A stretch of DNA of 64,000 nt from Candidatus Dormibacteria bacterium (GTDB taxonomy: Bacteria > Chloroflexota > Dormibacteria > Aeolococcales > Aeolococcaceae): NCBI GenBank assembly GCA_050011555.1, contig JBEKIT010000002.1, positions 91,419 through 155,418 of the forward strand, in the 5' to 3' direction. Positions within the stretch are counted from its first letter, which is position 1. Each line of letters begins with the position of its first letter. Shown here in pieces: positions 8,952-60,871 of the stretch. The notes under the pieces are model-generated. The model was not told where the DNA came from. It saw only the letters and a list, made by a program, of their open reading frames with translations, and did no database searches. A program made the position numbers and the translations under genes.

Positions 8952-9370
8952 GGCTGCCCGGCCTTCGCGCCGGCCGGCCGGCCGGGTCGCGCCTCCTTCC
9001 GGCGGTTGCCGTGGCGACTGCTCGGCGCCGGCGGGACCGGGCCGGAGGCCGCCCGGGCGAGCCCGACGGCGGCCACCGCCGCGGTCTCGACCTGCCCGCG
9101 CAGCAGCGCGAACGGGACGGTCAGGGCGCTGGCGTCGGTGCTCACGACCAGGTCGAAGCCATGGTGGGCGTCGAGCCCCCGAGCCGCCTCACGCAGCCGG
9201 CGGCGGGCCCGGTTGCGCTCGACGGCACCGGGAAGCCCGGGGACGGAGAGGCCGACGCGGGCCTCCTCCCGACCGTTGGGCGCGGCCTGGACACGCACCT
9301 GGCCGGCTCGTCCGGCGCACCGCCAGGAGCGCACCGAGGCGAAGCGCCCACGCCCAGCAAGGCTGCTGCC
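8948..9370 (-). CDS. rnpA: Ribonuclease P protein component. Start uncertain, probably GTG or TTG.
   Basis: RnpA-like basic protein, position between rpmH and yidD. Confidence 0.7.
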   Translation of the reverse strand, partial: GSSLAGRGRFASVRSWRCAGRAGQVRVQAAPNGREEARVGLSVPGLPGAVERNRARRRLREAARGLDAHHGFDLVVSTDASALTVPFALLRGQVETAAVAAVGLARAASGPVPPAPSSRHGNRRKEARPGRPAGAKAGQP

Positions 9371-9375
9371 GCCCG

Positions 9376-9522
9376 TCAGCGCGGGCCGGTCGGCGTGAGG
9401 CGCTTCCGTCCCTTGAGGCGGCGCGCCTTGAGCACGTTCCGACCGCCCGGCGTCGACATCCGGGCACGGAACCCGTGAGTCTTGCGGCGGTACGCCTTCT
9501 TGGGTTGATACGTTCGCTTTAT
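9376..9522 (-). CDS. rpmH: 50S ribosomal protein L34. The apparent initiation codon is ATA (Ile), preceded by a perfect AGGAGA SD at -6.
   Basis: Translation [44 protein letters not shown] matches the L34 consensus MKRTYQPS..RKR.HGFRARM. There is no in-frame ATG, GTG or TTG at the expected site. Confidence 0.8.
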
Positions 9523-9865
9523 CGGAGCTCTCCTGCCGTGAGACGTTCGCAAATCGCGCCCGGGGACGCCACGGAGCGCCGCGCCCGGACGGCGTGGTCA
9601 CGCCAGTATATTCGTTCCACCCACCCATCCCGGTCGCCCATCCGGGCGGCGACGCCGGCCGGCGGGCGCTCCGGCTCCCCGGCGGCCGCCTCGCTGACGC
9701 CTCGCGGCCTGCCGGCTGGGCCAGAGGGTCCCGCTTCCCGACCGGCTCGCCCGCCGGTTGTCGAGCGCCCCCGCCATTGCTAGACTGACGGATGCTCCGG
9801 CGGGACTAGTTCCCGCAGTCGCCCCAGCTAACGTTGACAGGCCCGTCCGGAAGTGGCGTCGAAGT

Positions 9866-9896
9866 TTATCCACTCCTGTTCACATCCTGTGGACAA
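9866..9896. promoter_or_regulatory. DnaA-box pair upstream of dnaA: TTATCCACT (9866-9874) and TGTGGACAA (9888-9896, the complement of TTGTCCACA)
   Basis: Matches of 8/9 and 9/9 to the TTATCCACA / TTGTCCACA consensus. Typical dnaA autoregulatory position. Confidence 0.5.
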
Positions 9897-9953
9897 GTGG
9901 CGACGGGAAGGCGGAGGTCGGTTTGTGGCTTCGGCGCATGGGCGACGCGAGGT

Positions 9954-11363
9954 GTGGTTTTGACGGTCGGGGCCGATGACGGCATCGTCCCGACGGACAC
10001 CGACCGCGCCTCGGCCCAGCAGGTCTGGAGCTCCGCGCAGGAGGAGCTCCGCTTCCAGCTGGCGCGGCCCAGCTACGAGACGTGGCTGGCCACCGCCACC
10101 CTCGTCGACAGCGACGGCCAGCGGTTCCTGATCGGGGTCCCGACCCGGCTGGCCCGCGACTGGGTCTCCGAGCGCTTCGTCTCGGTAATCCAGGAGGTCC
10201 TGTCCGGCCTTCTCGGTCATGAGTGCCAGGTGGAGATCACCGTCGACCCCATGGCCAGCCCCCCGCGCGACGAGCCGGCGCCACTCAGCGACTCCGACCT
10301 GGCCCCGGAGACCGACCTCGCCCCTGCCGGTGAGTCCCGGCTCAACCCGAACTTCACCTTCTCGAGCTTCGTCGTCGGCAATTCCTCGCGCTTCGCCCAC
10401 GCCGCGTGCCGGGCGGTCGCCGACGCTCCCGGCAAGGCCTACAACCCGCTCTTCCTGTACGGCGGTGTCGGCCTGGGGAAGACCCATCTCATGCACGCCA
10501 TCGGCCACGCGGTCCGCGAGGGCCACCGCCGGTCCCCGAAGGTCGCCTACATCACCTCCGAGAAATTCACGAACGAGATGATCTCTGCGATCCAGGAGAA
10601 CAAGACCAACGACTTCCGACATCGGTATCGGACCGTCGACGTCCTCCTCATCGACGACATCCAGTTCCTGGCCGGCAAGGACCGGACCCAGGAGGAGTTC
10701 TTCCATACCTTCAACGCCCTCCACGAGATCCAGAAGCAGATCGTGGTCAGTAGCGACCGCCCTCCCAAAGACATCCCCACCCTCGAGGACCGGTTGCGCA
10801 GCCGCTTCGAGGGTGGGCTGATGGCGGACATCCAGCCACCCGACGTGGAGACCCGGATGGCCATCCTCAAGACCAAGCTCGGTCCCCACAGCCGCCTCGT
10901 CCCGGACGAGGTCTGCAGCTTCATCGCCCACCGCATCCAGAGGAACATCCGGGAGCTGGAGGGGGCTCTCATCCGCGTCCTCGCCCACGCCTCGATCAAT
11001 GGCCACGCCATCACCCTCGAGATGGCCCAGCGCATCCTCAGCGACATCATCCCGGTGGCCGACGTCCAGCCGATCAGCATCCCCTTCATCCAGGAAACCG
11101 TCGCCGAGTACTACGGCATCGGCGTCGAGGAGATGAAGGGCAAGCGCCGGGACAAACACATCGTCTTCCCCCGCCAGGTCTCCATGTACCTCATCCGGGA
11201 GGAGACCGACTCCTCCCTGCCGGTGATCGGCGACGCCTTCAGCGGCCGGGATCACACCACCGCCCTCCACGCCATCGACAAGATCACCGAGCTGCTCCGC
11301 GAGGACACCCGCCTCCAGAGCGACATCCGCCTGCTCCGTCAGCGCCTCCATGCCCATGGCTGA
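9954..11363 (+). CDS. dnaA: Chromosomal replication initiator DnaA. Start GTG at about 9954 or TTG at 9960. There is no in-frame ATG.
   Basis: AAA+ Walker [11 protein letters not shown], Walker B, sensor motifs and the C-terminal DNA-binding domain HTTALHA. Confidence 0.9.
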
Positions 11364-11697
11364 CACCCTCTCCCCGGCATCCATCTCCAGCCGCCGGCGA
11401 GGAGCTCAGAGCAGCCTCCAGAGGAAGGCCTCCCGGACCGGTGCCAACCCCTGTGGAGATCACCGCCCAGGACTGTGGCAAACCCGCGGTCCCGCCCCCA
11501 CCTGGGCGAAACCCCCGAGCCCAAGGCAGGCGCTTCCCCAGCCCTCCGCCGGTTTTCCCCAACCCTCTGTATTCGAAAACCAGGGTTATCCCCTGCTTGC
11601 CCACCCCTATTAATCACCTCTTATCTCTACACTGTCACCACCCAAGGAGTCCCCTCCGGTGAACAACTGGCCCACTGGTATCGGCACACGCTCCGCC
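11364..11697. promoter_or_regulatory. Candidate oriC: dnaA-dnaN spacer with degenerate DnaA boxes and a locally AT-richer patch at 11605-11635
   Basis: TGTGGAGAT, TGTGGCAAA and TTATCCCCT box-like 9-mers. ctattaatcacctcttatctctacactg is AT-rich relative to a 72% GC background. The position is conserved for oriC in many bacteria. Confidence 0.4.
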
Positions 11698-12816
11698 ATG
11701 AGGTGCACGGTCTCCCCCTCGGCGCTCAGCGCCTCGTTGAGCCTGGTGTCGAGAGCCGTCTCGCCCCGCTCCACCCTGCCCGTGCTCAGCAACGTCCTCC
11801 TCGAAACCGAGGTCGAGGGGCTCCGGGTGACCGCCACCAACCTCGACCTCACCATCAGCGCGCTGGTCGCCGCCACGGTGCACGAGGAGGGGAGGGTGAC
11901 GGTGCCGGCCCGGCTCCTCGCCGAGTACGTGGCCTCGCTGGACGAGATTACCTGCACCATGGAGGTGGAGGAGCGGACCCAGATGCTCCGGATCAGCTCG
12001 GGCGTGCAGCGGACGAATCTGCATGGGATCGACGCCGTCGAGTTCCCCCCTCTTCCCGCTCGGGAGACGGCTCCGGCATTCGAGGTGGATGCGGCCGCTC
12101 TGCAGCAGGCGATCACCCAGACCGCCGTGGCGGCGTCCGGGGATGAGCAGACCCCCGTCCTCACCGGGGTCCTGCTCCACGTCGAGGGGTCGCGCCTCAC
12201 CTTGGTCGCCACCGATCGTCACCGGCTCGCGGTCAAGACGCTGGACGCCCAGGTGACCATCGAGGGCGCCGTGAACGGGACGGTGATCGTGCCTGCCCGC
12301 CACCTCGCCGAGCTCGCCCGCGCCATCAATCCGTCCCGGCCCACGGTGGGAGTCGCCTTCAGCGACGCCCGCAACCAGGTGTTCTTCACGCTTCGTGACA
12401 TGGAGATCTCGTCGCGACTGATCGAGGGGAACTATCCCAACTACGCGCAGGTGATCCCGGCCCACTCCACCACCACGGTGGTACTGCCCACCGCGCTGCT
12501 CCTCAAGAGCGCCAAGACCGCGGCAGTTCTTGCCAGAGATGCCTCAAACCCGGTGAGGCTACGAGCCGGGAAGGGCGAGCTGGAGCTGATCGCGCAGGCT
12601 GCCGAGATTGGGGATCACGACGCGCCGCTGCCGGCCAGGGTGGAGGGGGAGGAGGTCCAGGTCGCCTTCAACGCCCGCTACCTGCTCGACGCCCTCCAGG
12701 CGATCGACGGCGACGACGTCGAGCTGGCCCTCAATGGACCACTCCAGCCGGCGGTGGTGCGGGCCCAGGGCCACGAGGACTATCTCTGCGTCATCATGCC
12801 GGTGCGGGTGCCGTAG
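11698..12816 (+). CDS. dnaN: DNA polymerase III beta sliding clamp
   Basis: MRCTVSPSAL... aligns with the DnaN N-terminus. Three-domain clamp length. Confidence 0.9.
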   Translation: MRCTVSPSALSASLSLVSRAVSPRSTLPVLSNVLLETEVEGLRVTATNLDLTISALVAATVHEEGRVTVPARLLAEYVASLDEITCTMEVEERTQMLRISSGVQRTNLHGIDAVEFPPLPARETAPAFEVDAAALQQAITQTAVAASGDEQTPVLTGVLLHVEGSRLTLVATDRHRLAVKTLDAQVTIEGAVNGTVIVPARHLAELARAINPSRPTVGVAFSDARNQVFFTLRDMEISSRLIEGNYPNYAQVIPAHSTTTVVLPTALLLKSAKTAAVLARDASNPVRLRAGKGELELIAQAAEIGDHDAPLPARVEGEEVQVAFNARYLLDALQAIDGDDVELALNGPLQPAVVRAQGHEDYLCVIMPVRVP

Positions 12817-12830
12817 GGCACCGGCCCTAG
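12807..12830. terminator. Short GC hairpins (GGTGCC-GTAG-GGCACC or TAGGGC-ACCG-GCCCTA) overlapping the convergent stop codons of dnaN and the DUF721 gene
   Basis: Inverted repeats read directly. No T-tract. Confidence 0.3.
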
Positions 12831-12833
12831 CCC

Positions 12834-13166
12834 TCAGCTCATCGCGGTGAAGCGCAGGCGCTTGACCGCGTCCGCACCGAGGCGGCCGTTGAGAGCTCTG
12901 ACGATGGTGGGCATCTCGAGCTGAAGCTGCTGGGCGAGGGCGCCGTTGCGGGTGGCCACGAGCAGGGTGCCGCGCTGGAGCGAGAGAGCCTCGCAGAGCG
13001 GCGCCAGAGCGGGCCCGACCACCTCGGCGAACGCCTCTTTGAGCTGGACCTCGCGCACCTCACGCTGGACGCCGAGGTGGCGCAGGGCGGTGCCGAGCAC
13101 GTCCGCGATGTGGAGAGGTCCGGGTTCGCGCTCCGGGCGCGGGGGCTGATCGCCGCCGCCGGTCAT
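12834..13166 (-). CDS. DUF721 / DciA-like protein, the usual recF-downstream gene
   Basis: Size, position after recF with a 4-nt overlap, and the conserved hydrophobic pattern of DUF721. Confidence 0.7.
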   Translation of the reverse strand: MTGGGDQPPRPEREPGPLHIADVLGTALRHLGVQREVREVQLKEAFAEVVGPALAPLCEALSLQRGTLLVATRNGALAQQLQLEMPTIVRALNGRLGADAVKRLRFTAMS

Positions 13167-14359
13167 CGTGCCAGCACCGTGCCCTGGCGGACCACGAAGT
13201 GCTGCGAGCGCCGCTCGCCGAAGAGCCCCTCCTCACTGCAGGTCACCATGGTCTGGGGCGCGCCGGCTCCGGTCGCGAGCGCGCCGAGCAGCCGCTCCCG
13301 CCGGGCCGGGTCGAGCTCGCTGAGCACGTCGTCGAGAAGCAGCAGAGGCATCCGGCCGGAGACCCGTCCGACCAGGCGGACCTCGGCGATCTTGGTGGCA
13401 AGGACCGCGGTCCGCTGCTGGCCCTGGGAGCCAGTCGAGCGTGCGGCGCGGTCGTTAAGGACGTACTCCATGTCGTCGCGGTGGGGACCGACCACGGTGG
13501 TGCCGCGTGCCAGCTCCTCAGCGTGAGCGCGGGCGAGCGTGCGCCGCAGGGCGGCCATGGCCTCCTCGCGGTTGTCGGTGGCGGTGGCACCGTGGGGGAC
13601 GTAGCGCATCTCGAGCGCGTCCGTCGCGTCGCTGATCTCTGCCATCGCGGCGGCTGCCAGGGGGCCCAGCGTCCTCACCAGACCGGTTCGCGCCACCCGA
13701 ACTCCGGCGCCGTGCAGGACCAGCGCGTCGTCGAAGGTGCGGAGATGGTCGGGCGCATCACCGCCCTCGAGGTGGAGGCGGCGCAGCAGCGAGTTGCGCT
13801 GCTCGAGGACGCGCCGGTAGCGGACCAGCTCGTCCGCCGCGCCCCGGTCGAGCTGGGCGAGCAGGACGTCGAGAAGCCGGCGCCGTGCCTCCGGGCCGGC
13901 CTTCACCAGCTGCAGGTCGTCGGGCCAGAAGAGCACCACCGGCCAGCGGCCGAGGAGGTCACGGGGGGCGATCGGATGGCCGTCACTCGACGTCGTCCGC
14001 GCGATCCGCGGCGGGGACTCGGCGGGATCCGCGGGACCGGCGCCGGGCTCGCGGACCCGGCGGAGGCGGAGGGCGAGGCTCTCGGACAGCGTCCCCCGGA
14101 CCAGCACCGCGTCCACCGCCGCCTCGTCGGCCCCCCAACGGAGCAGCTCGCCCGCGGTGGTCGTCCGAGGTGAACGGGTGAGCAGGAGCGTGGCCACGGC
14201 CTCCAGCAGGTTGGTCTTCCCCTGCGCGTTCTCGCCGACGAAGACGTTGAGCCCTGGCCCCAACCGGAGGCTCAGCTCGGCGTAGTTCCGGAAGTTGAAG
14301 AGCCGGAGGCTGGCCAGGCCCTCCTCGGGCGATGGAAGGGCCTCCTCCGGGGGGCTCAC
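13163..14359 (-). CDS. recF: DNA replication and repair protein RecF. GTG start overlaps the upstream stop (GTGA).
   Basis: LRLFNFRNY N-terminus, Walker A GENAQGKTNLLEA, ABC signature and the D-loop LLLDDVLSELD. Confidence 0.85.
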   Translation of the reverse strand: MSPPEEALPSPEEGLASLRLFNFRNYAELSLRLGPGLNVFVGENAQGKTNLLEAVATLLLTRSPRTTTAGELLRWGADEAAVDAVLVRGTLSESLALRLRRVREPGAGPADPAESPPRIARTTSSDGHPIAPRDLLGRWPVVLFWPDDLQLVKAGPEARRRLLDVLLAQLDRGAADELVRYRRVLEQRNSLLRRLHLEGGDAPDHLRTFDDALVLHGAGVRVARTGLVRTLGPLAAAAMAEISDATDALEMRYVPHGATATDNREEAMAALRRTLARAHAEELARGTTVVGPHRDDMEYVLNDRAARSTGSQGQQRTAVLATKIAEVRLVGRVSGRMPLLLLDDVLSELDPARRERLLGALATGAGAPQTMVTCSEEGLFGERRSQHFVVRQGTVLAR

Positions 14360-15501
14360 GAGCGTTTCAGGGCCACCGAGCGGATGAGCTCGGCGACCTC
14401 GGCGGCGGCCTCGGGGCGGGCCAGCTGTGCCACCGCGGCCTGCATCGAGAGCAGCGAGGGGGATCCCGGCACCGCCAGCTCGGCAACCTCGTCCACCAGC
14501 TCGGCGTCCCCGGGCACGTAGCGGCCGGCCCCGGTGTCGATGAGCCACTCCATGTTGCCCCGCTCCTGACCGGGCAGGAACCAGGTGATGAGCAGGGGGA
14601 GCCCGGCGCAGAGCGCCTCTGCGATCGTCCCGGGACCCGCTTTGGTGACCACGATGTCCGCCGCCGTCATCCACTGGGCCATGTTGGTCACGAATCCCTG
14701 CACGACGACCGGACGGTCCCGCCGGTCACGGAGGCCGGCGAGGGCCGCCTCGGCGCGGCGGTTGCGCCCGCAGATCACCACCAGGGAGATGTCCAGCCCG
14801 CTGCCGGCGAGCACCCGCGCCCGGCGCTCGATGTCGCCGGAGCCGTCCGCGCCGCTGCAGACCAGCACGGTGAACCGATCGGGGTCGAGCCCGAGCTGGA
14901 GCCGCTGGAGTCGGCGGGCATCCGGGTCCGAGTCATGGCCGGTGAAGCCGGCGTCGACCGGCAGGCCCACTTGGACCAGACGGTCGGCCGGCACCCGGTT
15001 GCGGCGGCAGCGATCCAGCCCGCCCGGGGAGGGGACGATCACCAGGTCGACGTCCGGAGAGGCCCAGAAGGTGTGGACGTCGACCAGGTCGGTGACGGCG
15101 GTGACGATCGGGACCCGGAGGCCGAGACGACGGCGCGCGCGCACCGCGGCACGATTCAGGAGAGGGTGGAAGGAGACGACGGCCGCCGGCTCCAGGGAGG
15201 TCATCAGCCGTGCGATGGCGGGGTCCACGCTGTGCAGCACGAGCTCCGAGACCCGCACCATGGCCCGGGAGTTGGTGGCGTGGAAGAGCCCGCCCCACAC
15301 CCAGGGGGCGTGCTGGATGAGGGGGCCGTACAGCGAGGCGGTGCGTCCCAGCAGGCGGGGCGACGCCGTGGCGAACGGGTCGACGATCTCCACCGTGAAC
15401 TCACCGGGGTGGGCGACCCCGAGGTGGTGGCTGACCGCGGTCGCCGCGGCCCGGTGCCCGCCACCGGTATCGGCGATCAGGAAGAGGAGTGGGCGGGACA
15501 C
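14356..15501 (-). CDS. GT28 family glycosyltransferase (MGDG synthase / diacylglycerol glycosyltransferase-like)
   Basis: LFLIADTGGGHRAAA N-terminal motif and a MurG/MGD-like C-terminal domain. Confidence 0.7.
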   Translation of the reverse strand: MSRPLLFLIADTGGGHRAAATAVSHHLGVAHPGEFTVEIVDPFATASPRLLGRTASLYGPLIQHAPWVWGGLFHATNSRAMVRVSELVLHSVDPAIARLMTSLEPAAVVSFHPLLNRAAVRARRRLGLRVPIVTAVTDLVDVHTFWASPDVDLVIVPSPGGLDRCRRNRVPADRLVQVGLPVDAGFTGHDSDPDARRLQRLQLGLDPDRFTVLVCSGADGSGDIERRARVLAGSGLDISLVVICGRNRRAEAALAGLRDRRDRPVVVQGFVTNMAQWMTAADIVVTKAGPGTIAEALCAGLPLLITWFLPGQERGNMEWLIDTGAGRYVPGDAELVDEVAELAVPGSPSLLSMQAAVAQLARPEAAAEVAELIRSVALKRS

Positions 15502-15551
15502 GGCTCCTGAGACTAGCGAAGCCGACGGTCGGAAAGTCGCCGGGGGCGCGT

Positions 15552-17339
15552 TCAGCCCCCGAAGGAGACGGCGAGAGCCTCGAGTCCCGCGGGCAGCCCG
15601 GTGAGCGGAAGCGGCCCCGAACCGTCCGCGTTGGCGATCACGGCCTCCTCGGCGCCGGGCGCCAGGGTGGTGATGTAGGCGATCTGGCGGCCGCTCGGCG
15701 CCACGCTGGCACTGTCGGGATCGGGGTCGCCGAGCCCGGCGCCGATGGGCGAGAGCATCCCGGTCGCGATGTCGAGCGCGCCGAGCTGCGGTGAGCCTGG
15801 CGGGGCGTTGAGGGCGACCACCAGGGTGGCACTGTCGGTGAACCCCACCGGGGTGATCTGGGTTCCGACTCGGGAGGCGGGGCGGCTGCCGGCGGGGTCG
15901 ACCACCCAGGTGGCGGGAATCGGGCTGGACGGCGAGGTCACCTGGATGGCCAGCTCCTCCCCCTGCGGAGCCGCCACCAGGTGGTCGGCGGTCCCGACCA
16001 CCCCCGGCAGCGGGTACCGGGCGCCGATCGACGGGTTCGCCAGGTCGACGTGGGCGGGGCTGGTGGTGGTCGCCGCCACCGGGATGGCGAGCGCCTCGCC
16101 ATCCGCCGTCCAGACCGGTGGGGCGCTCGGCGACGAGCCCGCGGGGAGCTCGGAGAGGGTGCCGGAGGTGGGGTCGTAGAGCTCCACCGTCGAGTTGGAG
16201 GCGACGAAGGCGAGGGTCGCGCCGTCCGGCGACCAGGCCGGCGAGGTGGCGCCGGTGAGGTCCAGCTGGTCGAGCCCGTTCTGGACGTCGATGATCCGCA
16301 GCACCGGCGGCTGGTTGAGATGGGTCACGTCGGTCTGGACGATGGCCAGCCATTGCCCGCCCGGGGCGAGGCTCGCGCTGTCGATGACGGCGGTCGGCTG
16401 CCCGGGCCCCACATCACCGCAGTCGTCCGGGTCGGAGCAGACGGGCACGGAGTCGAGGACCTGGGCGGGGATGGGAAGTCCGGTGGCGGGCGCGGTGAGC
16501 TGCGCGAGCATCACCGTGGTGGCGGCTCCCAGGCTGGGCCCGGCCAGGACCAGGAGGTGCCCCTCTGCCAGCAGCGCGGTGGTCCGGAAGTGGACGGTGA
16601 TCGGGGATGAGATCGGTTGCCCGAAGGCGTCGGTGGCCCGGCGGCTGACCGTGAGGGTGTACGGGGTGCCGGGGGCCAGCGGGCGCTCCGGAATGACCTC
16701 GAACTGGCCGAGGTCGAGCGGGTTGCGGACCACCTCGAGGCCGGTCGCCTCCGGGCTGAGCGAGACGGCGGCGGCCAGCGCGGACGCGGACATCGCCCGC
16801 GAGAACGAGAGCAGCAGCGGGGTGTCGCGAGCCACGCTGGCACCGTCGCCGGGGGTCGCCGAGGTGAGCACCGGGGCTGCGGCGCTGGTCAGGTTCCAGA
16901 CGTGGTCGAGGGAGTTGACGTTGCCGTTGACCGAGGTGACGCCGGCGCCAAGCCTGAAGGTGTACTCGGTGTTCGGGGCGAAGAGGGCGCCGGGATGATG
17001 CAGCACGAAACCCGACTCGCCGGTCAGCCAGGTGATCCAGCAGGGCGCGCCGGGCCGGGCGGTGAAGGCCGCCTCCAGGTTGCATCCGGGTAGCCCGACC
17101 CGCGAGTTCTTCGACTCCACCACGGTGAGACGGGTGGCCACGCTCCGATGGGTGACGGGCTGATCGAAGACGACCTCGACCGTGGCGTTCGCATCGAGCT
17201 GGGTGGAGCCCGCGAGCGGGTTGAGCTGCACGATCTGAGGCGGAGCGCTGAAGCACCCGGTGACCAGCACCGAGGGTGCCAGGAAGGCGATGCCGAGGGG
17301 GATGACCCGGAGCCGGAAGGGGCGGCGGCGAGGGCTCAA
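15552..17339 (-). CDS. Secreted lipoprotein with Ig-like (SbsA/Big-type) domains and a TolB-like PD40 beta-propeller
   Basis: Signal peptide plus lipobox (LVTGC). WSPDGATLAF PD40 repeats. Ig-like beta-rich N-terminal segments. Confidence 0.6.
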   Translation of the reverse strand: MSPRRRPFRLRVIPLGIAFLAPSVLVTGCFSAPPQIVQLNPLAGSTQLDANATVEVVFDQPVTHRSVATRLTVVESKNSRVGLPGCNLEAAFTARPGAPCWITWLTGESGFVLHHPGALFAPNTEYTFRLGAGVTSVNGNVNSLDHVWNLTSAAAPVLTSATPGDGASVARDTPLLLSFSRAMSASALAAAVSLSPEATGLEVVRNPLDLGQFEVIPERPLAPGTPYTLTVSRRATDAFGQPISSPITVHFRTTALLAEGHLLVLAGPSLGAATTVMLAQLTAPATGLPIPAQVLDSVPVCSDPDDCGDVGPGQPTAVIDSASLAPGGQWLAIVQTDVTHLNQPPVLRIIDVQNGLDQLDLTGATSPAWSPDGATLAFVASNSTVELYDPTSGTLSELPAGSSPSAPPVWTADGEALAIPVAATTTSPAHVDLANPSIGARYPLPGVVGTADHLVAAPQGEELAIQVTSPSSPIPATWVVDPAGSRPASRVGTQITPVGFTDSATLVVALNAPPGSPQLGALDIATGMLSPIGAGLGDPDPDSASVAPSGRQIAYITTLAPGAEEAVIANADGSGPLPLTGLPAGLEALAVSFGG

Positions 17340-18925
17340 TAGGCGCGGGAGAGGGCGCTCTCCACGTCGATCGCCGCCATGGCACCGGTGCCGCTCTTCA
17401 CCTCGATCCGGGCCGCCTTGTCGGTCGCGATCTTGGCCACCCCGGTGGTTGCCGTGCTGAGTGCGGGGTTGGTCTGCGTATAGGAGCCGAGCACGTGGCC
17501 CTGGCTGAGCATGATGATCCCGACGTCCGAGCTCCCCACCACCAGCACGGCTCCGTCCACAGCCTCCTCGGTCAGGTAGGCGAGCAGTGCGTCGAAGTTC
17601 ACGAACCGCCCCAGGAGGCCGGTATAGAGGAGGGGGGCGGTCAGCAGGATGCCGATCCCCTCCACGATCTCGCTCGCGAGGTCGATGACGTCCAGCATCC
17701 CAGCCCCCGCGTCCATGCTGCGGCGGATCGCCTGGAAGGCGCCCTCACCGGATCGGGACCCGGGGGCACTGGACCGCGCGTCGAGGAGGTGGCCCTGATG
17801 AAAGAGGAGCAGCGCCGAGAAGTCGGGGGCGGTGAGCCGCACGTAGCCCGTGTGCTGGTCCCCGCGCAGGGTGCGGATGAGCTTGGGGAAGTCGACGAAG
17901 GCGCTCTTCAGCCCCTCGTACTGGGCCCGGCCCGAAGGGAGGGGATACATGATCTCGAGCGGCTCGACCGCCGGAGCACCCATGACCGCCGCCGGCTCAG
18001 GCGCCGGCTCCGCAGCCGGGGGAGGCTCGGGGCGGGGCACGCTCCTGACCGGGGCCGAAGGCTCCTGCCGGTACTGCGGGGCCGGTGCGGGAGCGGGCGC
18101 CGGGATCGGCTGCGGTTCGGCGGGCTGGTAATGCGCCGCCGCGGGAGCGGGGGCCGGGGCGCTCGGGGTCGGAGCCGGGGCCGGGGCCGCGGGCGCCGGG
18201 GCGGGTTCCGGGGTGAGGGTGGGAGCGGGAGCATTCCACGGCGAGTAGCCGGCGGCCTGCTGCTCCGCGCCGAAGTTGGGGACCGCCGAGGTCCAGGCGG
18301 GCTCCGGGTATCCGCCGCCGGGCTCGCTGTAGGTGGCTACCCCGTAGTCCTCGGCCTCCTCATAGGCGGTGCCCGTCCAGCCGGCCTGGTCCGCTGCACC
18401 GGCGGGGGGAGCCTCCGGCGTGCGCCGCTCCGCCTCGGCGATCAGCTCCGCGGGGGACGACTTGATCGTCTCCTCGGGCGGGAGCTTGGCGCGGGGGTCG
18501 AAGCGGAAGGTGCCGTCATGCCAGCTCAGCGCGTTGAGGACGACGTCCTCCCCCTGCCCCGACGGGCCGGCGGCATGGAAGAGGTGGCCAAACAGGAAGA
18601 AGAGCGATGCGGTGTCATTCTCGCTCTCGAGCGCGAGGGCACCCGTCGCGCGCTCCGTCTGCATGGTTTGGAGCAGGGTTGCCAGGTTGGATTCCTGCAG
18701 CAAGCCCTGAGTCTGCACAGGCCCTTCTCCGTGTGGGGATAGATCTGCCGCAAGGGCGGAATCAGAATCTGAGTTCGGCCGTATAGTAACAACCCCGCGC
18801 CCGATGCGCGGCGGTCTTTCCAAGGCGAGCAAGGGGGCTGGGTGAGCCGGACCCCGACCGGGCCTCTCCTGGAAACCGTCTAGACTGAGGCCGTGGGCAT
18901 TCCTCGCATGCCGGTACGCCGACAT
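17336..18925 (-). CDS. Protein with two DUF4388 (PATAN-like) domains separated by a Pro/Ala-rich linker. N-terminal extent uncertain.
   Basis: NLATLLQTMQTERATGALAL and FPKLIRTLRGDQHTGYVRL fit the DUF4388 signature. The linker is PAPAPAAPAPAPTP. 4-nt overlap with the downstream lipoprotein gene. Confidence 0.55.
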   Translation of the reverse strand: MSAYRHARNAHGLSLDGFQERPGRGPAHPAPLLALERPPRIGRGVVTIRPNSDSDSALAADLSPHGEGPVQTQGLLQESNLATLLQTMQTERATGALALESENDTASLFFLFGHLFHAAGPSGQGEDVVLNALSWHDGTFRFDPRAKLPPEETIKSSPAELIAEAERRTPEAPPAGAADQAGWTGTAYEEAEDYGVATYSEPGGGYPEPAWTSAVPNFGAEQQAAGYSPWNAPAPTLTPEPAPAPAAPAPAPTPSAPAPAPAAAHYQPAEPQPIPAPAPAPAPQYRQEPSAPVRSVPRPEPPPAAEPAPEPAAVMGAPAVEPLEIMYPLPSGRAQYEGLKSAFVDFPKLIRTLRGDQHTGYVRLTAPDFSALLLFHQGHLLDARSSAPGSRSGEGAFQAIRRSMDAGAGMLDVIDLASEIVEGIGILLTAPLLYTGLLGRFVNFDALLAYLTEEAVDGAVLVVGSSDVGIIMLSQGHVLGSYTQTNPALSTATTGVAKIATDKAARIEVKSGTGAMAAIDVESALSRAY

Positions 18926-19661
18926 GGCTTCGGCCTCCCATCGATGTCCAGCCTCACCGCCGGCGCGGTGTGCCCGGCACGGGCCGGGGGGTGGCAGGCG
19001 CGGGTTGTCTGAGCCACCCGCATCGGGGTCGACGGAACAGTCCGGCCAGGTCCGGTCCGCCTTCCCGTCCTATGAGGAGCTGTCGGCCGACCTGATCGAG
19101 GCGCTCGATCAGGCGGGCCTCTTCATCGAGGACGTGCGGCACCACCTGGAGCCGTCGGTGGGGGAGCGCCGTTTCGAGTGCACCATCCGGCTCTCTTCCA
19201 GCGAGCCACCCGCGCGCTACCACGTCCACCTCAGCTTCGTCTGGGACGCCCTCCTGACCTACATCGCGGCCTACGGCGCCGGCGCCGATTGCGACCTCTA
19301 CCACGACGACGACGAGGCCGAGGACTGTCCCCACCACCAGCTCACGCCCCAGCCCTTCGTCGAGCTGGAGGCGGAGTTCGTCCTCGGCGACGGAGGCTAC
19401 GAGCTGCACGACGTGGCCGAGATCTCGTCGTGGGTGGAGACGGTGCAGGAGCTGCTGGCCAAGGTGTTCCGGGACGAGGACCGCCCCTCCGTCCACGTCG
19501 GGATCGCCTCCCTGGGATCGACCACGCTGGTCGAGAAGTTCACCGCCGAGCACTCGTGGCTCCTCGACTTCGAGCAGCCCCCGGACGTCGAGGGGATCGC
19601 CCGCCAGATCCTGACCGCGCTGCGCCTGGTCCCGCAGCTCGCCGACCGCCTGCCGATCTGA
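18924..19661 (+). CDS. Hypothetical protein. The true start is probably downstream of 18924.
   Basis: Long ORF with coding-like composition. No recognisable motif. Confidence 0.35.
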   Translation: MASASHRCPASPPARCARHGPGGGRRGLSEPPASGSTEQSGQVRSAFPSYEELSADLIEALDQAGLFIEDVRHHLEPSVGERRFECTIRLSSSEPPARYHVHLSFVWDALLTYIAAYGAGADCDLYHDDDEAEDCPHHQLTPQPFVELEAEFVLGDGGYELHDVAEISSWVETVQELLAKVFRDEDRPSVHVGIASLGSTTLVEKFTAEHSWLLDFEQPPDVEGIARQILTALRLVPQLADRLPI

Positions 19662-25391: not shown

Positions 25392-28669
<3,278 letters not shown>

Positions 28670-28843
28670 GGCGTCAGGGGCGAAGTTTGTCGCAACCGGG
28701 CCGCCTGGGTCCCGCCCGGACGCCTTGGGGCTGCGACGCTCCGGAGACGATTCCACCCGTGTGTTGCAACTGGCACCCTTTCGGGTATAGTCGTTGCAGG
28801 CGGGAGCTTTCGAGAGCCGCTGCCCCGGCCGTCCGTCGGCCAG

Positions 28844-31636
28844 ATGCCGCGTCATTGCCGCGAGCGCGTGCCTCCGAAGCTTCCCGGAATACGTGTGCTG
28901 CCGCCGCACGGCCATATCCTGCGGCGCATCGAGGTTGACAGTCCGCTGATCGCACCGGACCTCGCGCTCGACCGGCTTCACCTCATCGTGCCCGATGAGA
29001 GCGACGCCATGGTCGTGCTCACCACCCTTGCAAACGGCGGTGCCGCCGGAGCGGATCCCCGCGCCGTCTTTGCCGAGCGCCTCTCCGAGCTCGGCCACCT
29101 CACCGCCTCCTTCAGCGACGACGATCCCCCCCAGGTGCGGCTGGCGCTGCCCGATCTGACCCTGCAGTGCGTCCCCCAGCCCGACCCGGGCGGCGACCCC
29201 GCCCATCTCGCCCTCCGGGTGATCTCGCTCAAGCCGGTCAGCGACCATCCCGAGGGGGCCAAGATCCTGACCCTCACCGCCCGTCACCCGGTGGTCACCG
29301 CCGCCAACGGGGTGGCCAGCGACACCTTCCGGATCCTCGATTGGCGGCGTGCCGGTGCCAAGGCCGCCAAGAGCGAGCGCCTCTACGCCACCCTGAAGCT
29401 GGTCGAGCGCCTGGAGGGGGCGGAGAAGGGCCGAGCCCAGACCCAGCGAACCCGCTACATCGCCGCCCGCGAGTTCTGGCGCTGCAAGACCTGCCGGGCA
29501 CTCTGGCGGCCCGGGGAGCAGACCCAGTGCCCTTCCTGCGGACGCGAGTTCGGCGAGATGGACCGCAGGCAGCCGGAGATCGCCAAGGTCGAGTTCTCCG
29601 TTCCCGAGGGAGAGCCGCTCAACCTCGCCCCGGACGCGGCGGTGCTGGTGGAGCCGGAAGACGAGCCCAACTTCGTCGGCCGGGTCTCCCGGATCGACCA
29701 CCACCGGCACACCGTCGAGGTCACCACCCGCACCTTCGAGCATGCCGGGAGCGAGGGCTACATCACCCCCTCCTTCAACCGAGCCCTCTACCAGGCCAAG
29801 CGCTCGGTGCTGGCCGCGATCGCGACCCGGGATTTTGGGGTGGGTCTGCTCGCCCAGCTCCTGGTCGCCGCCGACACGGTGCGCTCGCCCGCGTACGTCC
29901 CGAGCACCGAGCCGGGGGGATGGCTCACCGAGGGGATGCAGGCGAACCCGCCCCAGGACCGGGCGGTCGCCCTCCTCTCCGGTCTCCAGGCCGGGCAGGC
30001 CGTCTTCATCCAGGGGCCGCCGGGGACCGGCAAGACGACGGTCATCGTGGAGGCCGTCAAACGGCGTCTCGCCGCCGATCCCGAGGAGCGGATCCTGGTC
30101 ACCTCCCACTCCAACCTGGCCGTCGACAACGCGCTGGAGCGGCTCGCCGGCACCCCCGGGATGCGGGCGGTGCGGGTCGCTCGGGCCGAGCGGGTCCACC
30201 CGGCGGTCGAGCGCTTCCGCTGCGACGACGAGGACGACCCACGGCTGATGGAGGCCAACTGCTACTTCGCCACCTGCGCGACGGCGGCCACCTCGGCGAT
30301 CACCGACATGAACTTCGACGTGGTCATCCTCGACGAGGCCAACAAGGCACGGGCCGACGAGTCCCTCCCAGCCCTGCGCCTCGGCTCGGCGCTCGCCCTG
30401 GTCGGCGACCACAAGCAGCTGCCCCCGGTCGAGGACGACTCCCTCTACGGCATCGTCGAGACCGATCCCTTCCTGGAGGAGCTGGTCAACACCTCTCTCT
30501 TCGAGATGGCCTGGGACGGCGGCCTTCCCGCCGAGGCCCGGTGCCTGCTGACCATCCAGCACCGGATGCACCCGCAGATCTCCGCCTACATCTCGCGTGC
30601 CTCCTACGAGGGCCAGCTCGAGGACGCACCGGAGGTTCAGGCCTATGAATTCGTGACCCGCAAGCCGCTGCCGGTCGCGCTTCACTTCGTCGACACCGAC
30701 GGCATGCGGGGAAGCCGGGAGCGCCGCGGCCCCGGTGGCGCCCTGCGCAACGAGACCGAGGTGCGGGTGGCGGCCCACGTGGTCCGCCTGCTCGACGAGC
30801 GCTGCCCGCGCGATCTGAGCATGGCGGTGATCGCCATGTACGCGGAGCAGGTGGAGCGGCTGCGCCAGGCTTTGGGGCGGCGCAAGTTCAAGCGGTCGGT
30901 GAAGATCGACACGGTCGACTCCTTCGAGGGCCGCGAGGAGGACCTGGTCGTCATCTCCCTGGTCCGCTCCAACGAGCGGGGCCGGATCGGCTTCCTGCGG
31001 GTGCCCAACCGGCTCAACGTCGCCGTCTCCCGGGCCAAGCGGCTGGTCGCCTGCATCGGCGATGCCAACACCCTGAGGTCCGGTGAGGAGTCGATGTACG
31101 GCGTGCTGGTCGAGGCTGCACGAGAGGCCGGCGGCTACGTCCTGGCCTCCGAGGTGGTGTCGCCGCGGCGCCGTGCCGACCATCCCTTCGGGACCGAAGG
31201 TGAGGCCGCTCCGGGCGAGGGCGCGGGGTCGCGCCGCCACCGCCGTCGCCGCCGGCCTGGCACCATCGCCGCGGTGCCGCCCGCGCTCGGGCCCGACGGT
31301 GGGCCGCTCGCTCCCGCGGCGGGCGCGGAGGGGCAGATCGGCCAGCCCGCGCGGCGCCGCCGTCGGCGCCGCCGTCGCGGGGGGTCGCACTCGGAGATGG
31401 GAGGAGCCCTCCCCGGGGCGGACGGCGAAGTGCCGCGTTCCGAGGGGGAGGCCGGCAGCACACCCCCGGCGGGCCAGGCCAACTCGCGGTCGCGCCGTCG
31501 CCGTCGCCGTCGCCACGGTCCGCGACCCCTGGGTGCGGGCGGCATCGAGGGCGGCTCGGCCACGCCGGGGACGGGTCCGAGTGGCGGCGAGAGCCCGGGC
31601 GGCGAGGCGGGCCCCCCGCCGTCCGCAGGCGACTGA
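28844..31636 (+). CDS. Superfamily 1 Upf1/DNA2-like helicase (AAA_11/AAA_12) with an N-terminal domain of unknown function containing a CxxC...CxxC zinc ribbon and a C-terminal poly-arginine tail. Start uncertain.
   Basis: Walker A GPPGTGKTT, DEANKA Walker B, QHRMHPQI, and motif VI VAVSRAKR. Zinc ribbon CKTCRALWRPGEQTQCPSCG. Tail has R6-R8 runs. Confidence 0.75.
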   Translation: MPRHCRERVPPKLPGIRVLPPHGHILRRIEVDSPLIAPDLALDRLHLIVPDESDAMVVLTTLANGGAAGADPRAVFAERLSELGHLTASFSDDDPPQVRLALPDLTLQCVPQPDPGGDPAHLALRVISLKPVSDHPEGAKILTLTARHPVVTAANGVASDTFRILDWRRAGAKAAKSERLYATLKLVERLEGAEKGRAQTQRTRYIAAREFWRCKTCRALWRPGEQTQCPSCGREFGEMDRRQPEIAKVEFSVPEGEPLNLAPDAAVLVEPEDEPNFVGRVSRIDHHRHTVEVTTRTFEHAGSEGYITPSFNRALYQAKRSVLAAIATRDFGVGLLAQLLVAADTVRSPAYVPSTEPGGWLTEGMQANPPQDRAVALLSGLQAGQAVFIQGPPGTGKTTVIVEAVKRRLAADPEERILVTSHSNLAVDNALERLAGTPGMRAVRVARAERVHPAVERFRCDDEDDPRLMEANCYFATCATAATSAITDMNFDVVILDEANKARADESLPALRLGSALALVGDHKQLPPVEDDSLYGIVETDPFLEELVNTSLFEMAWDGGLPAEARCLLTIQHRMHPQISAYISRASYEGQLEDAPEVQAYEFVTRKPLPVALHFVDTDGMRGSRERRGPGGALRNETEVRVAAHVVRLLDERCPRDLSMAVIAMYAEQVERLRQALGRRKFKRSVKIDTVDSFEGREEDLVVISLVRSNERGRIGFLRVPNRLNVAVSRAKRLVACIGDANTLRSGEESMYGVLVEAAREAGGYVLASEVVSPRRRADHPFGTEGEAAPGEGAGSRRHRRRRRPGTIAAVPPALGPDGGPLAPAAGAEGQIGQPARRRRRRRRRGGSHSEMGGALPGADGEVPRSEGEAGSTPPAGQANSRSRRRRRRRHGPRPLGAGGIEGGSATPGTGPSGGESPGGEAGPPPSAGD

Positions 31637-56767: not shown

Positions 56768-58059
56768 TCAGGCGACCGGGATGGCCCGGATCTGATAGAC
56801 GGGCTTGGGCGGCAGGGGGGTGTCGACCAGGGCGTCCGCGAACGTCTGGCTGCAGCTGGTCTCCGCCTGCGTCTGGGTCGCGAGGACGTTGCCGCCCAGG
56901 CCGCCGCCGGGCAGCACGCATTCGTAGCGGGCCGACCCGTCGCCCCCGACCCACCCCACGAAGGCCGTGACGCTCACGTCCTAGGCGGCGGTGACGGTGG
57001 CCCCGGCGGCCGGGATGCTGCCCTCCCACTGATCTGCGTGTAGTAGTGGGTCACGCAGCTTCCCGAGCTGAGCGCCGGCACGTCCTCGGTGGTCCCGTCG
57101 CCGAAGTTCCAGTGCACCGAATCGGAGGGCGCCACCGAGAGATAGAAGGAGTAGACGATGGAGACGCCCTGGGAGTCGGGCGCGCCCATCAGGTCGTCGA
57201 TGGTCGGAGCCACGTCGTCGCCCTCGGGCTGTGGAGCGACCCAGAAGCAGGTGGGGGCGAAGACCAGGTAGTTGTCCGGGGCGTCGGTCTCGACCTGGCC
57301 GGCGGCGACGGTGAGCTGGGCGAGGGCCTGTGCCTCGGTCGCGGGTACCGAGAACGGCGCGGCAGGCGGGACGCCGGGTCCGGGGTTGTGGGCCGGTACG
57401 GTGGTCGCGCTCACGGTGAGCACCCCCGGGTCGTGGCAGAGGCCGTTCTGCCAGGTCCCCGGCGTGGTCGGGTCGGAGGTGACCTTCACGTCCACGACGT
57501 CGTCATCGATCCCGGAGAAGACCTACAGCCCGTTGGCGAGGCCCTTGCCGATCAGGTATGTCGGGGGCGCCGGAGGGTAGGGCGAGAGCGGCGCGTCCCA
57601 GTTGCCCCCGGGGACGGTCGTCGAGTCGCTGCCGGAGTAGAAAGCGTCGGTGTCGGTGGCGAACTCCCCGCCGGTGGTGCCGCTCCAGAAGGCGATCGGG
57701 AATGCCTCCAGTCTGCCCGCCCCGCCGGCGGGCGTGATCTCGGTCGATCGACCGATGAGCTGCGCCTCCTCCCACCCGGTGTCGATGGTGCAGGCGCCGG
57801 TCCGAACCTCGGCCGGGGTGCCCTGGCCGGTTCCCCCGTTGCGGCCGTCGGTGCCCGTGCCCGGGCAGTAGAGGGTGAGATCGCCGGCCGCCGTGAGGCT
57901 GCCGGAGGTTGGCCTGAGGATGGTGAGGCCCGTGGCGGTCTGACAATCGAAGGAGCCTGCGCCGCCGCCGCCGCCGCCCGCCGCTCGCGCCGTCCCGCCT
58001 GGCACGGACCAGAGGATTGCGAGGATTGGAAGCGCGATCATCGCGCGACAGAGCCTCAC
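56768..58059 (-). pseudogene. Secreted Gly/Thr-rich protein with a PKD-like domain, interrupted by an in-frame TAG (57523-57525) and a frame change near 56975
   Basis: Signal peptide MRLCRAMIALPILAILWS. ORF1 and ORF2 are in the same frame, separated only by TAG plus 9 codons. ORF2 has the PKD-like WNFGDGTT...THYYT. A third ORF continues in another frame to 56768. Confidence 0.45.
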
Positions 58060-58937
58060 ACGCCGCTCTCCGCGAGGATCGACGCTACATCGGCACCTGC
58101 GCTTGAGTTGACTGAGGCTTCCATCTCCAAGTAGTCACCCAAGGCCGGGGCGGTCTTCGTCTCAGTGATCTCGAGCTCCTGATACTCTTGGCCCGCGCCT
58201 ATTGGGTAGTCGGTGACCTGACCAGTCGCTGACGTCCACTCGGTGATACAGGGACCCGCCCAAGTCAACGCGTACGCGACGCCGGGAGTGCTGATGCGAG
58301 CTCCCGTGAACTCGGACATCTCATCAGCCGTGATGATCATTGCGTACACCTTGATCGGGTACTCGCAGGCGGCCGTTTCGTCCACTACCTTGCCGCCTTG
58401 TTCGATGAAGGCGGTCACGTTGTTCCCCGTCGGAAGCAGGAAGCGCATGAAATCGTACTGTGCGTGCTGCCCCGCCCACTCCCAAAGAGCCCAGAGGGTG
58501 CTGTCGAGCTGCACCCACGTCGCGAGGGCCGCATCGGTCACTTGACCACCGGTCAGGTTCTTCGTTTGTACTGGGAGAGGGTTCGGCGTGATCTCAGAGC
58601 ACGCAGGGACCATCGTCGCGTACATCTGGAACCACGCTTGCTTTACGGCCGTCAGGTTCGGGAGGTTGAGTTGGTCGTTGGCCAGCGCCGATGCTGCTCC
58701 GGGGATCGGCGTGTCCTGTGCGTCGCAAAACGAGGCGGGTGTGTCGGCCGGGGTTGACGTGGGTGTCGCCGATGGGACGTGGGCCCGCGTACTCGCCGGG
58801 ACGGCTGATGGAGATGCCGTTGCACCACAGCCCGGGAGCAGCCCGATCGCGATAGATAGCGCGATGATCCGGGCGGCACTTCTGAGCCAGCCCCGGCGCG
58901 CGTGGCTCGCGGGTATTCGTGCGGGACGGGCGCCCAT
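58056..58937 (-). CDS. Lipoprotein of unknown function. Start taken at the Met preceding the lipobox LLPGC.
   Basis: Signal peptide with lipobox. Reduced GC relative to its surroundings. Confidence 0.5.
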   Translation of the reverse strand: MGARPARIPASHARRGWLRSAARIIALSIAIGLLPGCGATASPSAVPASTRAHVPSATPTSTPADTPASFCDAQDTPIPGAASALANDQLNLPNLTAVKQAWFQMYATMVPACSEITPNPLPVQTKNLTGGQVTDAALATWVQLDSTLWALWEWAGQHAQYDFMRFLLPTGNNVTAFIEQGGKVVDETAACEYPIKVYAMIITADEMSEFTGARISTPGVAYALTWAGPCITEWTSATGQVTDYPIGAGQEYQELEITETKTAPALGDYLEMEASVNSSAGADVASILAESGV

Positions 58938-59245
58938 GGTCTCTCCTTCCCCAGAAACCGCAGGTTGCGGCGGCGCAGCATACAGACAACCGCACCCCGT
59001 TTGCTGAAGGCGCCGCTGGCCCCGATCCCGCGCTGGGTCACGGCGCACCTGATTGTCCGGAACGGGCCACTCCCCGCTACTCCCGGAGGTCACCATGACC
59101 GCCAGCCTATGGGGCGCCCTCAGACACGGGGCGGACATTCCAGACCTCGTTCCTTGATCGGCCCGCCAAGCCCGCTCCCCGACACCGCAGGCTGGGTGAT
59201 GTAGCTGAGCGAGTGTACCTGTGCGGCTTCCGCCCCGTGGGCGGT

Positions 59246-60741: not shown

Positions 60742-60871
60742 GGGCCGAACCTATGGGCCCGGAGCGGACACCACCCGGACAATCGGTCGGGGCCACGCCC
60801 CGGCGAACCTGACCCGCCGAGGCCGGGGAACGGGATGCCCCTCGACGCGACAGCCGCCCGGCCTCCGGACG

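Follow-up and report, generated by a model that had tools for sequence, protein, structure and literature searches.

Opposite-strand recF-dciA behind a GT28 glycosyltransferase gene in one clade of Candidatus Dormibacterota

The order dnaA-dnaN-recF-dciA is among the most conserved gene orders of bacteria, and the canonical cluster in its full form, dnaA-dnaN-recF-dciA(DUF721)-gyrB-gyrA, is found for example as Rv0001-Rv0006 in Mycobacterium tuberculosis. DciA is an essential helicase loader, a role which for the organism considered here is predicted from the protein family. The present work concerns a stretch of 64,000 nucleotides from a Candidatus Dormibacteria bacterium (GenBank assembly GCA_050011555.1, contig JBEKIT010000002.1, positions 91,419 to 155,418; G+C content 72%), referred to below as the window, in which recF and dciA lie on the strand opposite to dnaA-dnaN, converge on dnaN, and are the last two members of a run of five genes, directly behind the gene for a glycosyltransferase of family 28 (GT28). 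This is a real and stable gene-order variant, and there is no evidence that it represents a new kind of system. It probably arose through an ancient inversion of the recF-dciA pair in situ, followed by capture of the pair into an operon behind the GT28 gene and by tightening of the junctions.

The gene dciA is normally located between recF and gyrB, or beside one of them in scattered clusters (Brezellec et al. 2016, PMC5109545). The window fits this rule, because its dciA stands right after recF with overlapping stop and start codons and the pair adjoins dnaN, and it is also like the canonical cluster in that dnaA and dnaN are adjacent to each other and divergent from an opposite-strand rnpA-yidD-yidC-jag block, as is usual beside dnaA. 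It departs from the canonical cluster in that the recF-dciA pair is inverted in place, on the opposite strand to dnaN and with 17 nt between the stop codons, and is fused to a preceding glycolipid-synthase gene, RecF having recruited a new start codon; in addition, neither gyrB nor gyrA is found at the locus in either of the two clades of Dormibacterota distinguished below, one of which has a helicase-nuclease gene in the gyrB position. No paper describing an inverted recF-dciA pair behind GT28 was found, and no operon link of the GT28 family concerned to recF or dciA was found in the literature searched. We know of no report of such a link.

The other members of the block also have described relatives. 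The GT28 protein has the MGDG_synth plus Glyco_tran_28_C architecture in common with the diacylglycerol (DAG) glycosyltransferases of the MGD1/UgtP (YpfP) type, but it differs from UgtP in scoring under the NCBIfam equivalog cut-off for that enzyme, and neither its sugar specificity nor its processivity is assigned by homology. The response regulators PatA and PixG/TaxP, which contain a PATAN domain, bind the type IV pilus motor (bioRxiv 10.1101/2021.06.11.447907). The PATAN protein of the window shares their N-terminal PF14332 domain, but in place of a receiver it has a long disordered linker and two PATAN-like modules, and no pilus or chemotaxis genes adjoin its gene. TolB is the top fold match, on the predicted structure, for the propeller of the lipoprotein encoded next to PATAN; unlike TolB, the lipoprotein carries a pair of Big_5 domains on a lipoprotein anchor instead of the TolB N-domain, and no Tol-Pal genes lie nearby.

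Two gene orders within Dormibacterota

Gene identities were assigned with Pfam and NCBIfam profile searches and the junctions were read directly off the sequence. Every gene identity proposed in a first-pass annotation of the window was confirmed in this way, as was its statement that recF and DUF721 (dciA) stand opposite to dnaA-dnaN and converge on dnaN, an arrangement found likewise in 27 relatives. The genes for the PATAN protein, the lipoprotein with Big_5 domains (Big5), GT28, RecF and DciA all lie on the same strand, and the junctions between them, in that order, are -4, 50, -4 and -4 nt. PATAN is the first gene of this minus-strand run, because a plus-strand gene at 19005-19661 separates the block from the genes for HPPK and FolP. 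This neighbour, which is divergent from PATAN, encodes a 218-residue protein (unk218) with no Pfam or NCBIfam match. Its homologues are 68-80% identical across all of clade A, compared with 51-58% for RecF in the same distant genomes, so that it is the more conserved of the two; it was not found in clade B loci.

A RecF scan using one genome per species produced 70 loci, nearly all of them from Candidatus Dormibacterota or from soil and peat metagenome-assembled genomes (MAGs) labelled otherwise, and the window proteins were mapped onto these loci (numbered with the prefix L) by tblastn. Two arrangements emerge. In clade A (the window and L007-L033, 27 species) the order is always folP, HPPK, the divergent unk218 gene, then PATAN, Big5, GT28, recF and dciA, running towards the convergent dnaN and dnaA. 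In clade B (40 loci, including Ca. Dormibacter) the canonical dnaA-dnaN-recF-dciA is followed on the same strand by a gene for a 931-residue PcrA/UvrD helicase of superfamily 1 (SF1) with a C-terminal PD-(D/E)XK (Cas4-like) nuclease domain, with a 4-nt overlap on the dciA stop. No clade A locus, the window included, has this gene. In clade B it is abutted by a GT28 homologue, which is encoded on the other strand and thus converges on the replication block.

In a neighbour-joining tree of RecF, clades A and B are reciprocally monophyletic, and Dehalococcoidia, Armatimonadetes and Bacteroidota fall outside both. The best matches of clade A proteins in clade B have 34-46% identity for DciA and 44-48% for RecF, compared with 31-39% between RecF and the outgroups. 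The left flank, rnpA-yidD-yidC-jag-M16 peptidase-ndk-signal peptidase, is collinear in the two clades, the orientation of GT28 relative to dnaA-dnaN is identical in both, and recF-dciA alone is flipped, with its internal order and overlap the same in both clades. The minimal difference between the two arrangements is therefore the orientation of a 1.5-kb recF-dciA segment together with the presence or absence of the helicase-nuclease gene. Clade B thus shares with the window the flanks, the GT28 neighbour and its orientation, and the same kind of TAnnnT box ahead of GT28 (see below); it differs in having recF-dciA co-directional with dnaN, the helicase-nuclease gene after dciA, a stand-alone GT28 gene divergent from a glycosyltransferase family 4 (GT4) gene, and no PATAN or Big5 gene nearby. 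The order of clade B is read as ancestral, and that of clade A as an ancient inversion, because the co-directional order is general in bacteria (PMC5109545) and is also found in the Armatimonadetes outgroup locus. Of the three outgroup loci, L073 and L074 include sequence that flanks recF, and neither shows a GT28 gene near it. A search for inverted repeats flanking recF-dciA returned GC-rich chance matches only, and none at the borders of the pair.

The first-pass annotation had named a misassembly or inversion breakpoint at about 12.8 kb as the observation that could overturn its account of the locus. Such a breakpoint is ruled out: an identical DciA protein in an identical gene order occurs on at least 23 contigs from Joint Genome Institute (JGI) peat metagenomes, European Nucleotide Archive (ENA) assemblies and the NCBI MAG GCA_003514365.1, these contigs share the dciA/dnaN junction and include one of 426 kb, and the order is also present in 27 other species-level genomes, in some of them on contigs of 0.5-1.5 Mb.

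The absence of gyrB and gyrA downstream of recF, which had also been pointed out, was borne out as an observation, in that E. coli GyrB and GyrA fragments gave no tblastn match in the 64-kb window or in 76 loci, in a search run with no positive control. The absence is unrelated to the inversion, however, because the canonical clade B loci also lack both genes and have the UvrD-nuclease gene there instead.

The coupled genes and their products

RecF scores 281.3 bits over the whole protein with the TIGR00611 equivalog model (cut-off 172), and its Walker A motif GENAQGKT, signature SQGQQR and Walker B motif LLLLDD are all intact in the translation. The sole canonical start codon of recF is a GTG which overlaps the GT28 stop codon as GTGA, an overlap noted at the first pass and evident on direct reading. 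The protein has in the window an N-terminal extension of about 12 residues (VSPPEEALPSPEEG) which is absent in clade B and in the outgroups, where the start lies two codons before a conserved LxLxNFRNY anchor; the extension is present because the only start codon now overlaps the GT28 stop. In clade A the first in-frame start available is the one that overlaps the stop, 7-19 codons upstream and in most cases 14. Comparison of the N-termini indicates that the extra residues of clade A are rich in Pro, Ala, Ser and Glu and poorly conserved, and the extension looks like a by-product of the recruitment of a new start codon at a new junction.

The DciA protein matches PF05258 with 76.6 bits (gathering cut-off 24) and the DUF721 domain of DciA in PDB entry 7YKM with E 3e-7. 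Its gene lies directly downstream of recF, and its ATG overlaps the recF stop as ATGA (13163-13166). Both overlaps are deeply retained: the -4 start/stop overlap of GT28 and recF is kept in 23 of 26 clade A loci, down to a RecF identity of about 51%, and that of recF and dciA in 26 of 27. Conservation of this kind strongly supports GT28-recF-dciA as the invariant core of the arrangement throughout clade A and as a translationally coupled unit.

The GT28 protein matches PF06925 (MGDG_synth; 48.6 bits) and PF04101 (Glyco_tran_28_C; 42.9 bits), and it matches Arabidopsis MGD1 (4WYI) over its full length (residues 4-374, E 1e-51). Its best NCBIfam match is the UgtP-type model PRK13609 (diglucosyl-DAG synthase), at 124.9 bits well under the equivalog cut-off of 500; homologues are named 1,2-DAG 3-beta-galactosyltransferase in their source records, and the best 120 homologues listed are all within Dormibacterota. 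On these matches the protein is most likely a membrane glycolipid (monohexosyl-DAG) synthase of the MGD1/UgtP type, though not UgtP itself.

The Big5 protein has a Pfam Big_5 match of 87 bits and a PD40 match just under the cut-off of that family. Its N-terminus, ...LAPSVLVTGC, was read in translation, with no dedicated predictor, as a signal peptide with the lipobox LVTGC including the Cys; the lipobox consensus of 26 homologues is LLTGC. In an AlphaFold2 model (pLDDT 87.8) two Ig-like domains are followed by a beta-propeller, for which the top Foldseek matches are TolB (E 3e-12, TM score 0.45-0.5, 14% identity). The label "TolB-like" given at the first pass therefore suits the propeller fold and not the family, since the TIGR02800 (TolB) model gives 26 bits against a cut-off of 343 and the N-terminal half consists of two Big_5 domains. 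TolB orthology is accordingly ruled out, the fold alone being matched. The 45 homologues of the Big5 lipoprotein are all of Dormibacterota type, and within the phylum the family was met with in clade A alone. Its gene starts with a TTG that overlaps the PATAN stop as TTGA, which bears out the 4-nt overlap already reported between the lipoprotein and DUF4388 genes.

The PATAN protein matches PF14332 with 77.2 bits (gathering cut-off 25). In its AlphaFold2 model the PATAN domain at the N-terminus is joined by a disordered linker, about 115 residues long and rich in Pro and Ala, to a C-terminal part made up of two tandem, homologous PATAN-like modules (C1 and C2; hhalign probability 95.7%), and no receiver domain (PF00072) was matched even at E 0.1. 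There are 406 homologues, and all among the matches listed are of Dormibacterota type. The gene most likely starts at the GTG at 18718 (460 residues) and not at the ATG at 18925, because every relative has kept both the Shine-Dalgarno-like GGAGAAGGGCCT-GTG and, farther upstream, a promoter-like motif, and the ATG is upstream even of this motif. Apart from this start, which the first-pass annotation had placed at 18925, and the limits of GT28, which are set here to 14356-15501, the earlier gene coordinates stand (Table 1). In a distant clade A genome (L079/L080) a gene for an OmpR-type regulator with Response_reg and Trans_reg_C domains (9142-9960, minus strand) lies divergently upstream of PATAN, in addition to the unk218 homologue; its product could regulate the PATAN-Big5 unit in that lineage.

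Table 1. Coordinates of the features discussed, in the window unless a locus is named
Feature	Position	Strand	Evidence or remark
dnaA	9954..11363	+	DnaA_N, Bac_DnaA, Bac_DnaA_C (Pfam); gene calls on identical contigs
dnaA-dnaN spacer, candidate oriC segment	11364..11658	.	four relaxed DnaA boxes
dnaN (beta sliding clamp), dnaA-adjacent	11659..12816	+	all three DNA_pol3_beta domains
gap between convergent dnaN and dciA stop codons, 17 nt	12817..12833	.	direct reading
dciA/DUF721, 110 aa, single-domain form, last cistron	12834..13166	-	PF05258
recF, 398 aa	13163..14359	-	TIGR00611
GT28, MGD1/UgtP-type monohexosyl-diacylglycerol synthase homologue, 381 aa	14356..15501	-	PF06925 + PF04101
Big5-GT28 spacer, 50 nt	15502..15551	-	conserved block, candidate -10 box
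Big5 lipoprotein, 595 aa: two Big_5 Ig-like domains + C-terminal TolB-like beta-propeller	15552..17339	-	
PATAN/DUF4388 (PatA_N) protein, 460 aa	17336..18718	-	PF14332
candidate PATAN promoter region	18780..18811	-	conserved motif + GC hairpin
helicase-nuclease gene of clade B	L051 11444..14239	+	also in 37 other clade B loci; occupies usual gyrB position

Transcription units, the dnaA-dnaN region and other features of the window

The question of how the five genes are transcribed can be approached through the conserved sequences ahead of PATAN and ahead of GT28. All clade A loci, even the most distant ones, have the motif GGGGTTG(T/C)TACTATACGG about 60 nt before the PATAN start, and it occurs only once in the window. 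The upstream motif of the window, GGTTGTTACTATACG, contains an extended -10-like element, TGnTACTAT, with TACTAT at 18788-18783, and a GC hairpin (CCGCGCATCGGGCGCGG) occupies 18811-18795 just upstream of the TACTAT box. This conserved motif would be the promoter of PATAN-Big5, with a 5' untranslated region (UTR) of about 60 nt following it. The stretch of about 60 nt from the TACTAT box to the PATAN start (...CGGCCGAACTCAG...TCCGCCCTTGCGGCA...; 18719-18811 on the minus strand with the hairpin) is, together with the hairpin, well conserved in the sub-clade of the window, and it may have a regulatory function, as a 5' UTR or as an operator. An Rfam scan of the window returned one tRNA only, with no match at 18719-18811.

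Ahead of GT28, the spacer in the window's sub-clade is 50-166 nt long and variable in sequence except for a block, GCTAG(T/G)CTCAGGRGCC, directly before the start. The window has here a TAGTCT hexamer (15515-15510) 8 nt ahead of the GT28 GTG at 15501, and an AGGAG 2 nt ahead of the same start. Chance would place a TAnnnT sequence 5-11 nt upstream of the GT28 start in about 0.6% of loci, but one is present in 16 of the 26 loci of clade A and in 9 of the 17 of clade B; in some of these clade B loci (for example L034, L041-L043, L046, L047, L051 and L063) GT28 stands alone and divergent from GT4. Across the window as a whole, TAnnnT 5-9 nt before candidate starts is about fivefold enriched (13 observed, 2.6 expected), which points to a frequent use of leaderless mRNAs by this organism; examples 6-8 nt before candidate starts are at 24694, 25317, 25392, 37370, 40662, 45149 and 54374. 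The TAGTCT hexamer may accordingly be read as the own -10 element of the window's GT28-recF-dciA, giving a leaderless mRNA or one with a very short leader. An internal promoter ahead of GT28 in the window's sub-clade is likely, because the TAnnnT box is conserved before GT28 and a box of the same kind stands ahead of the stand-alone GT28 of clade B.

The gene content of two further loci bears on the same question. A GT4 gene separates Big5 from GT28 in the clade A genome L030 and in the metagenome contig L077; it is on the opposite strand, is accompanied in L077 by a HAD hydrolase gene, and is a homologue (44-47% identity) of the clade B GT4 that is divergent from GT28. The divergent GT4/GT28 pair is therefore ancestral, and most of clade A has lost GT4 from this position. 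The separation also shows that GT28-recF-dciA can stand alone. PATAN-Big5, for its part, is a separable upstream module with a conserved promoter-like motif of its own.

These observations have to be set against the possibility that PATAN, Big5, GT28, recF and dciA form one obligatory transcription unit which couples replication and repair to envelope biogenesis, a possibility judged unlikely although it is the strongest of those competing with inversion and capture. The first-pass annotation had taken the five genes for a single unit, and much of what it relied on holds: they are on one strand with gaps of only -4, 50, -4 and -4 nt, they keep this order in all clade A loci, and the promoter-like motif ahead of PATAN is conserved clade-wide. 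Moreover, Big5 and GT28 are closely spaced in 10 of 26 clade A loci (L019-L022, L025, L028, L029 and L031-L033), at -4 to 27 nt in all ten and at -4 to +9 in eight, and the only one of the ten with a TAnnnT before GT28 is L020, where the match falls on the stop codon of Big5. In the lineages with a spacing of -4 to +9 nt the five genes could plausibly form one operon, and read-through from the PATAN-Big5 promoter would probably be the sole source of transcription where the junction is tight; read-through into GT28 is possible more generally. What argues against the single unit is the presence of the opposite-strand GT4 gene that parts Big5 from GT28 in L030 and L077, and the conserved -10-like box before GT28 in the window's sub-clade, a box in common with the stand-alone GT28 of clade B. 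As to a coupling of functions, GT28 lay beside the replication block before the inversion, so that its adjacency needs no functional cause, and no interaction is predicted from the protein families.

Upstream of the block, the longest open reading frame (ORF) for dnaA is 9834-11363, and gene callers place its start at 9954 or 9960. Shortly before the likely start there are two DnaA-box-like 9-mers with one mismatch, at 9866 and 9888, and the 60-mer at 11561-11630 in the dnaA-dnaN spacer is among the most AT-rich of the window. The segments 9866-9896 and 11364-11658 are on this weak evidence candidate parts of an origin of replication (oriC). The GC skew of the window follows the coding strand and has no replication V, and it is therefore unusable for determining the direction of replication or whether a gene is head-on to it.

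At the convergent junction, the window and 17 of 26 clade A loci have -4 to 21 nt between the stop codons of dciA and dnaN. A bidirectional terminator was considered here and rejected: although the window sequence can be drawn as a hairpin, the junction showed no conserved structure when folded in the 21 short-gap loci of clade A (z-scores of -1.5 to +1.8, around zero), and a scan for consensus terminators was negative. The gap contains no conserved terminator hairpin, and the two units therefore converge without an intergenic terminator. In six clade A loci (L015, L019, L021, L029, L030 and L032) unrelated insertions of 319-650 nt lie between dciA and dnaN, examples being a small lipoprotein-like ORF (L015) and a small ORF resembling a hydrophobic membrane protein (L030). 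These gaps hold no remnants of the UvrD-nuclease gene, the small unrelated ORFs being found there instead.

Elsewhere in the window, a plus-strand gene at 27332-31636 encodes a 1434-residue SF1 helicase whose C-terminal third contains AAA_11/AAA_12 (Upf1/DNA2-like) domains and whose first ~870 residues have no Pfam match. The sole clearly low-GC stretch, 58000-60750 (64.6% against about 72%), contains minus-strand ORFs with no Pfam match (58056-59249, 57523-58059 and 59246-59731) beside a WXG100-like gene (59728-60741), and it may be a foreign or secretion-related island.

Origin and meaning of the arrangement

The ancient inversion in situ that was named at the outset as the probable explanation can be laid out as a series of steps. 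In the common ancestor of clade A of Candidatus Dormibacterota (AD3), the recF-dciA cassette (1.5 kb), which then had dnaN on one side and a convergent GT28 gene on the other, would have been inverted, and the gene for the UvrD/PD-(D/E)XK helicase-nuclease would have been lost from the locus. The inversion would have put recF-dciA downstream of GT28 on the same strand, where the two genes would since have been kept as distal, translationally coupled cistrons, with RecF initiated at a new start codon overlapping the GT28 stop, which would account for its short and variable N-terminal extension, and with DciA initiated at the ATG overlapping the recF stop. In the window the resulting tricistron would probably be transcribed from the -10-like TAGTCT 8 nt before the GT28 start, as a leaderless or short-leader mRNA, and read-through from the PATAN-Big5 promoter may add to its transcription. 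We infer that the coupling is neutral or driven by compaction, an operon capture and not a functional circuit between replication and the envelope. The link of replication and repair to envelope functions that the first-pass annotation had drawn from the gene order is thus not supported beyond physical adjacency, GT28 having already been the convergent neighbour of the block before the inversion; a functional link of this kind is possible.

Several points weigh against this account. Clades A and B are sisters, so that the polarity of the change depends on the outgroup and on general bacterial gene order. Neither a remnant of the UvrD-nuclease gene nor flanking inverted repeats are present to document a mechanism. 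The AGGRG within the conserved block before GT28 is Shine-Dalgarno-like, and the block could be a ribosome-binding region and not a promoter; indeed, co-transcription and both promoters are deduced from the conservation of sequence. Finally, deep retention of the overlaps throughout the clade is also what selection for co-expression would be expected to produce.

This last point leads to the proposal that co-regulation itself was selected, the synthesis of RecF and DciA being tied to that of a glycolipid synthase so that the capacity to start or restart replication tracks membrane growth. UgtP is a growth-rate sensor in B. subtilis, at least 23 of 26 species, with RecF identities as low as about 51%, retain the -4 overlaps, and RecF has acquired a new start codon adapted to the junction. 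The retention of overlaps is, however, predicted equally by genome compaction, the genes in question are expressed in clade B from convergent units without any coupling, no independent recurrence was seen in the outgroup loci (which, where they have flanking sequence, show no GT28 near recF), and the GT28 protein falls under the UgtP equivalog cut-off. Selected co-regulation is for these reasons given little credence. An equally slight probability attaches to a bolder version of events, in which the RecF and DciA of clade A would be made only as coupled distal cistrons of a leaderless glycolipid-synthase mRNA, hard-wiring the initiation and restart of replication to membrane-lipid synthesis, and the terminator-less abutment on dnaN would give reciprocal antisense control of clamp and loader.

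A replacement in place of an inversion is more doubtful still. In that case the original pair would have been deleted together with the UvrD-nuclease gene, and a foreign or paralogous recF-dciA cassette inserted behind GT28, which would agree with the absence of inversion scars and flanking repeats and with the fact that no clade A locus has the UvrD-nuclease gene. The RecF of clade A is, however, sister to that of clade B with the outgroups outside both, clade A RecF and DciA are closer to clade B (44-48% and 34-46% identity) than the 31-39% of RecF to the outgroups, and the order and overlap of recF-dciA are identical in the two clades. An artefact of assembly or binning at about 12.8 kb can be dismissed as extremely improbable, because, however suspicious a 17-nt convergent junction might look at first, no support for one was found and the junction recurs on at least 23 contigs of separate JGI, ENA and NCBI assemblies and in the 27 species-level genomes.

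With an ancient inversion and operon capture as the probable history, the locus is of interest in several respects. It is a clean and datable exception to a conserved gene order, fixed in a deep clade of an uncultured soil phylum, and as a rare genomic change it provides a marker which divides Dormibacterota into two groups. It would serve as a worked example of operon capture, in which a new start codon overlapping the upstream stop brings with it a new N-terminal extension of RecF. It also offers a testable case in which dciA, an essential replication gene, would belong to a lipid-synthesis operon and lies head-on to dnaN with no terminator between them.

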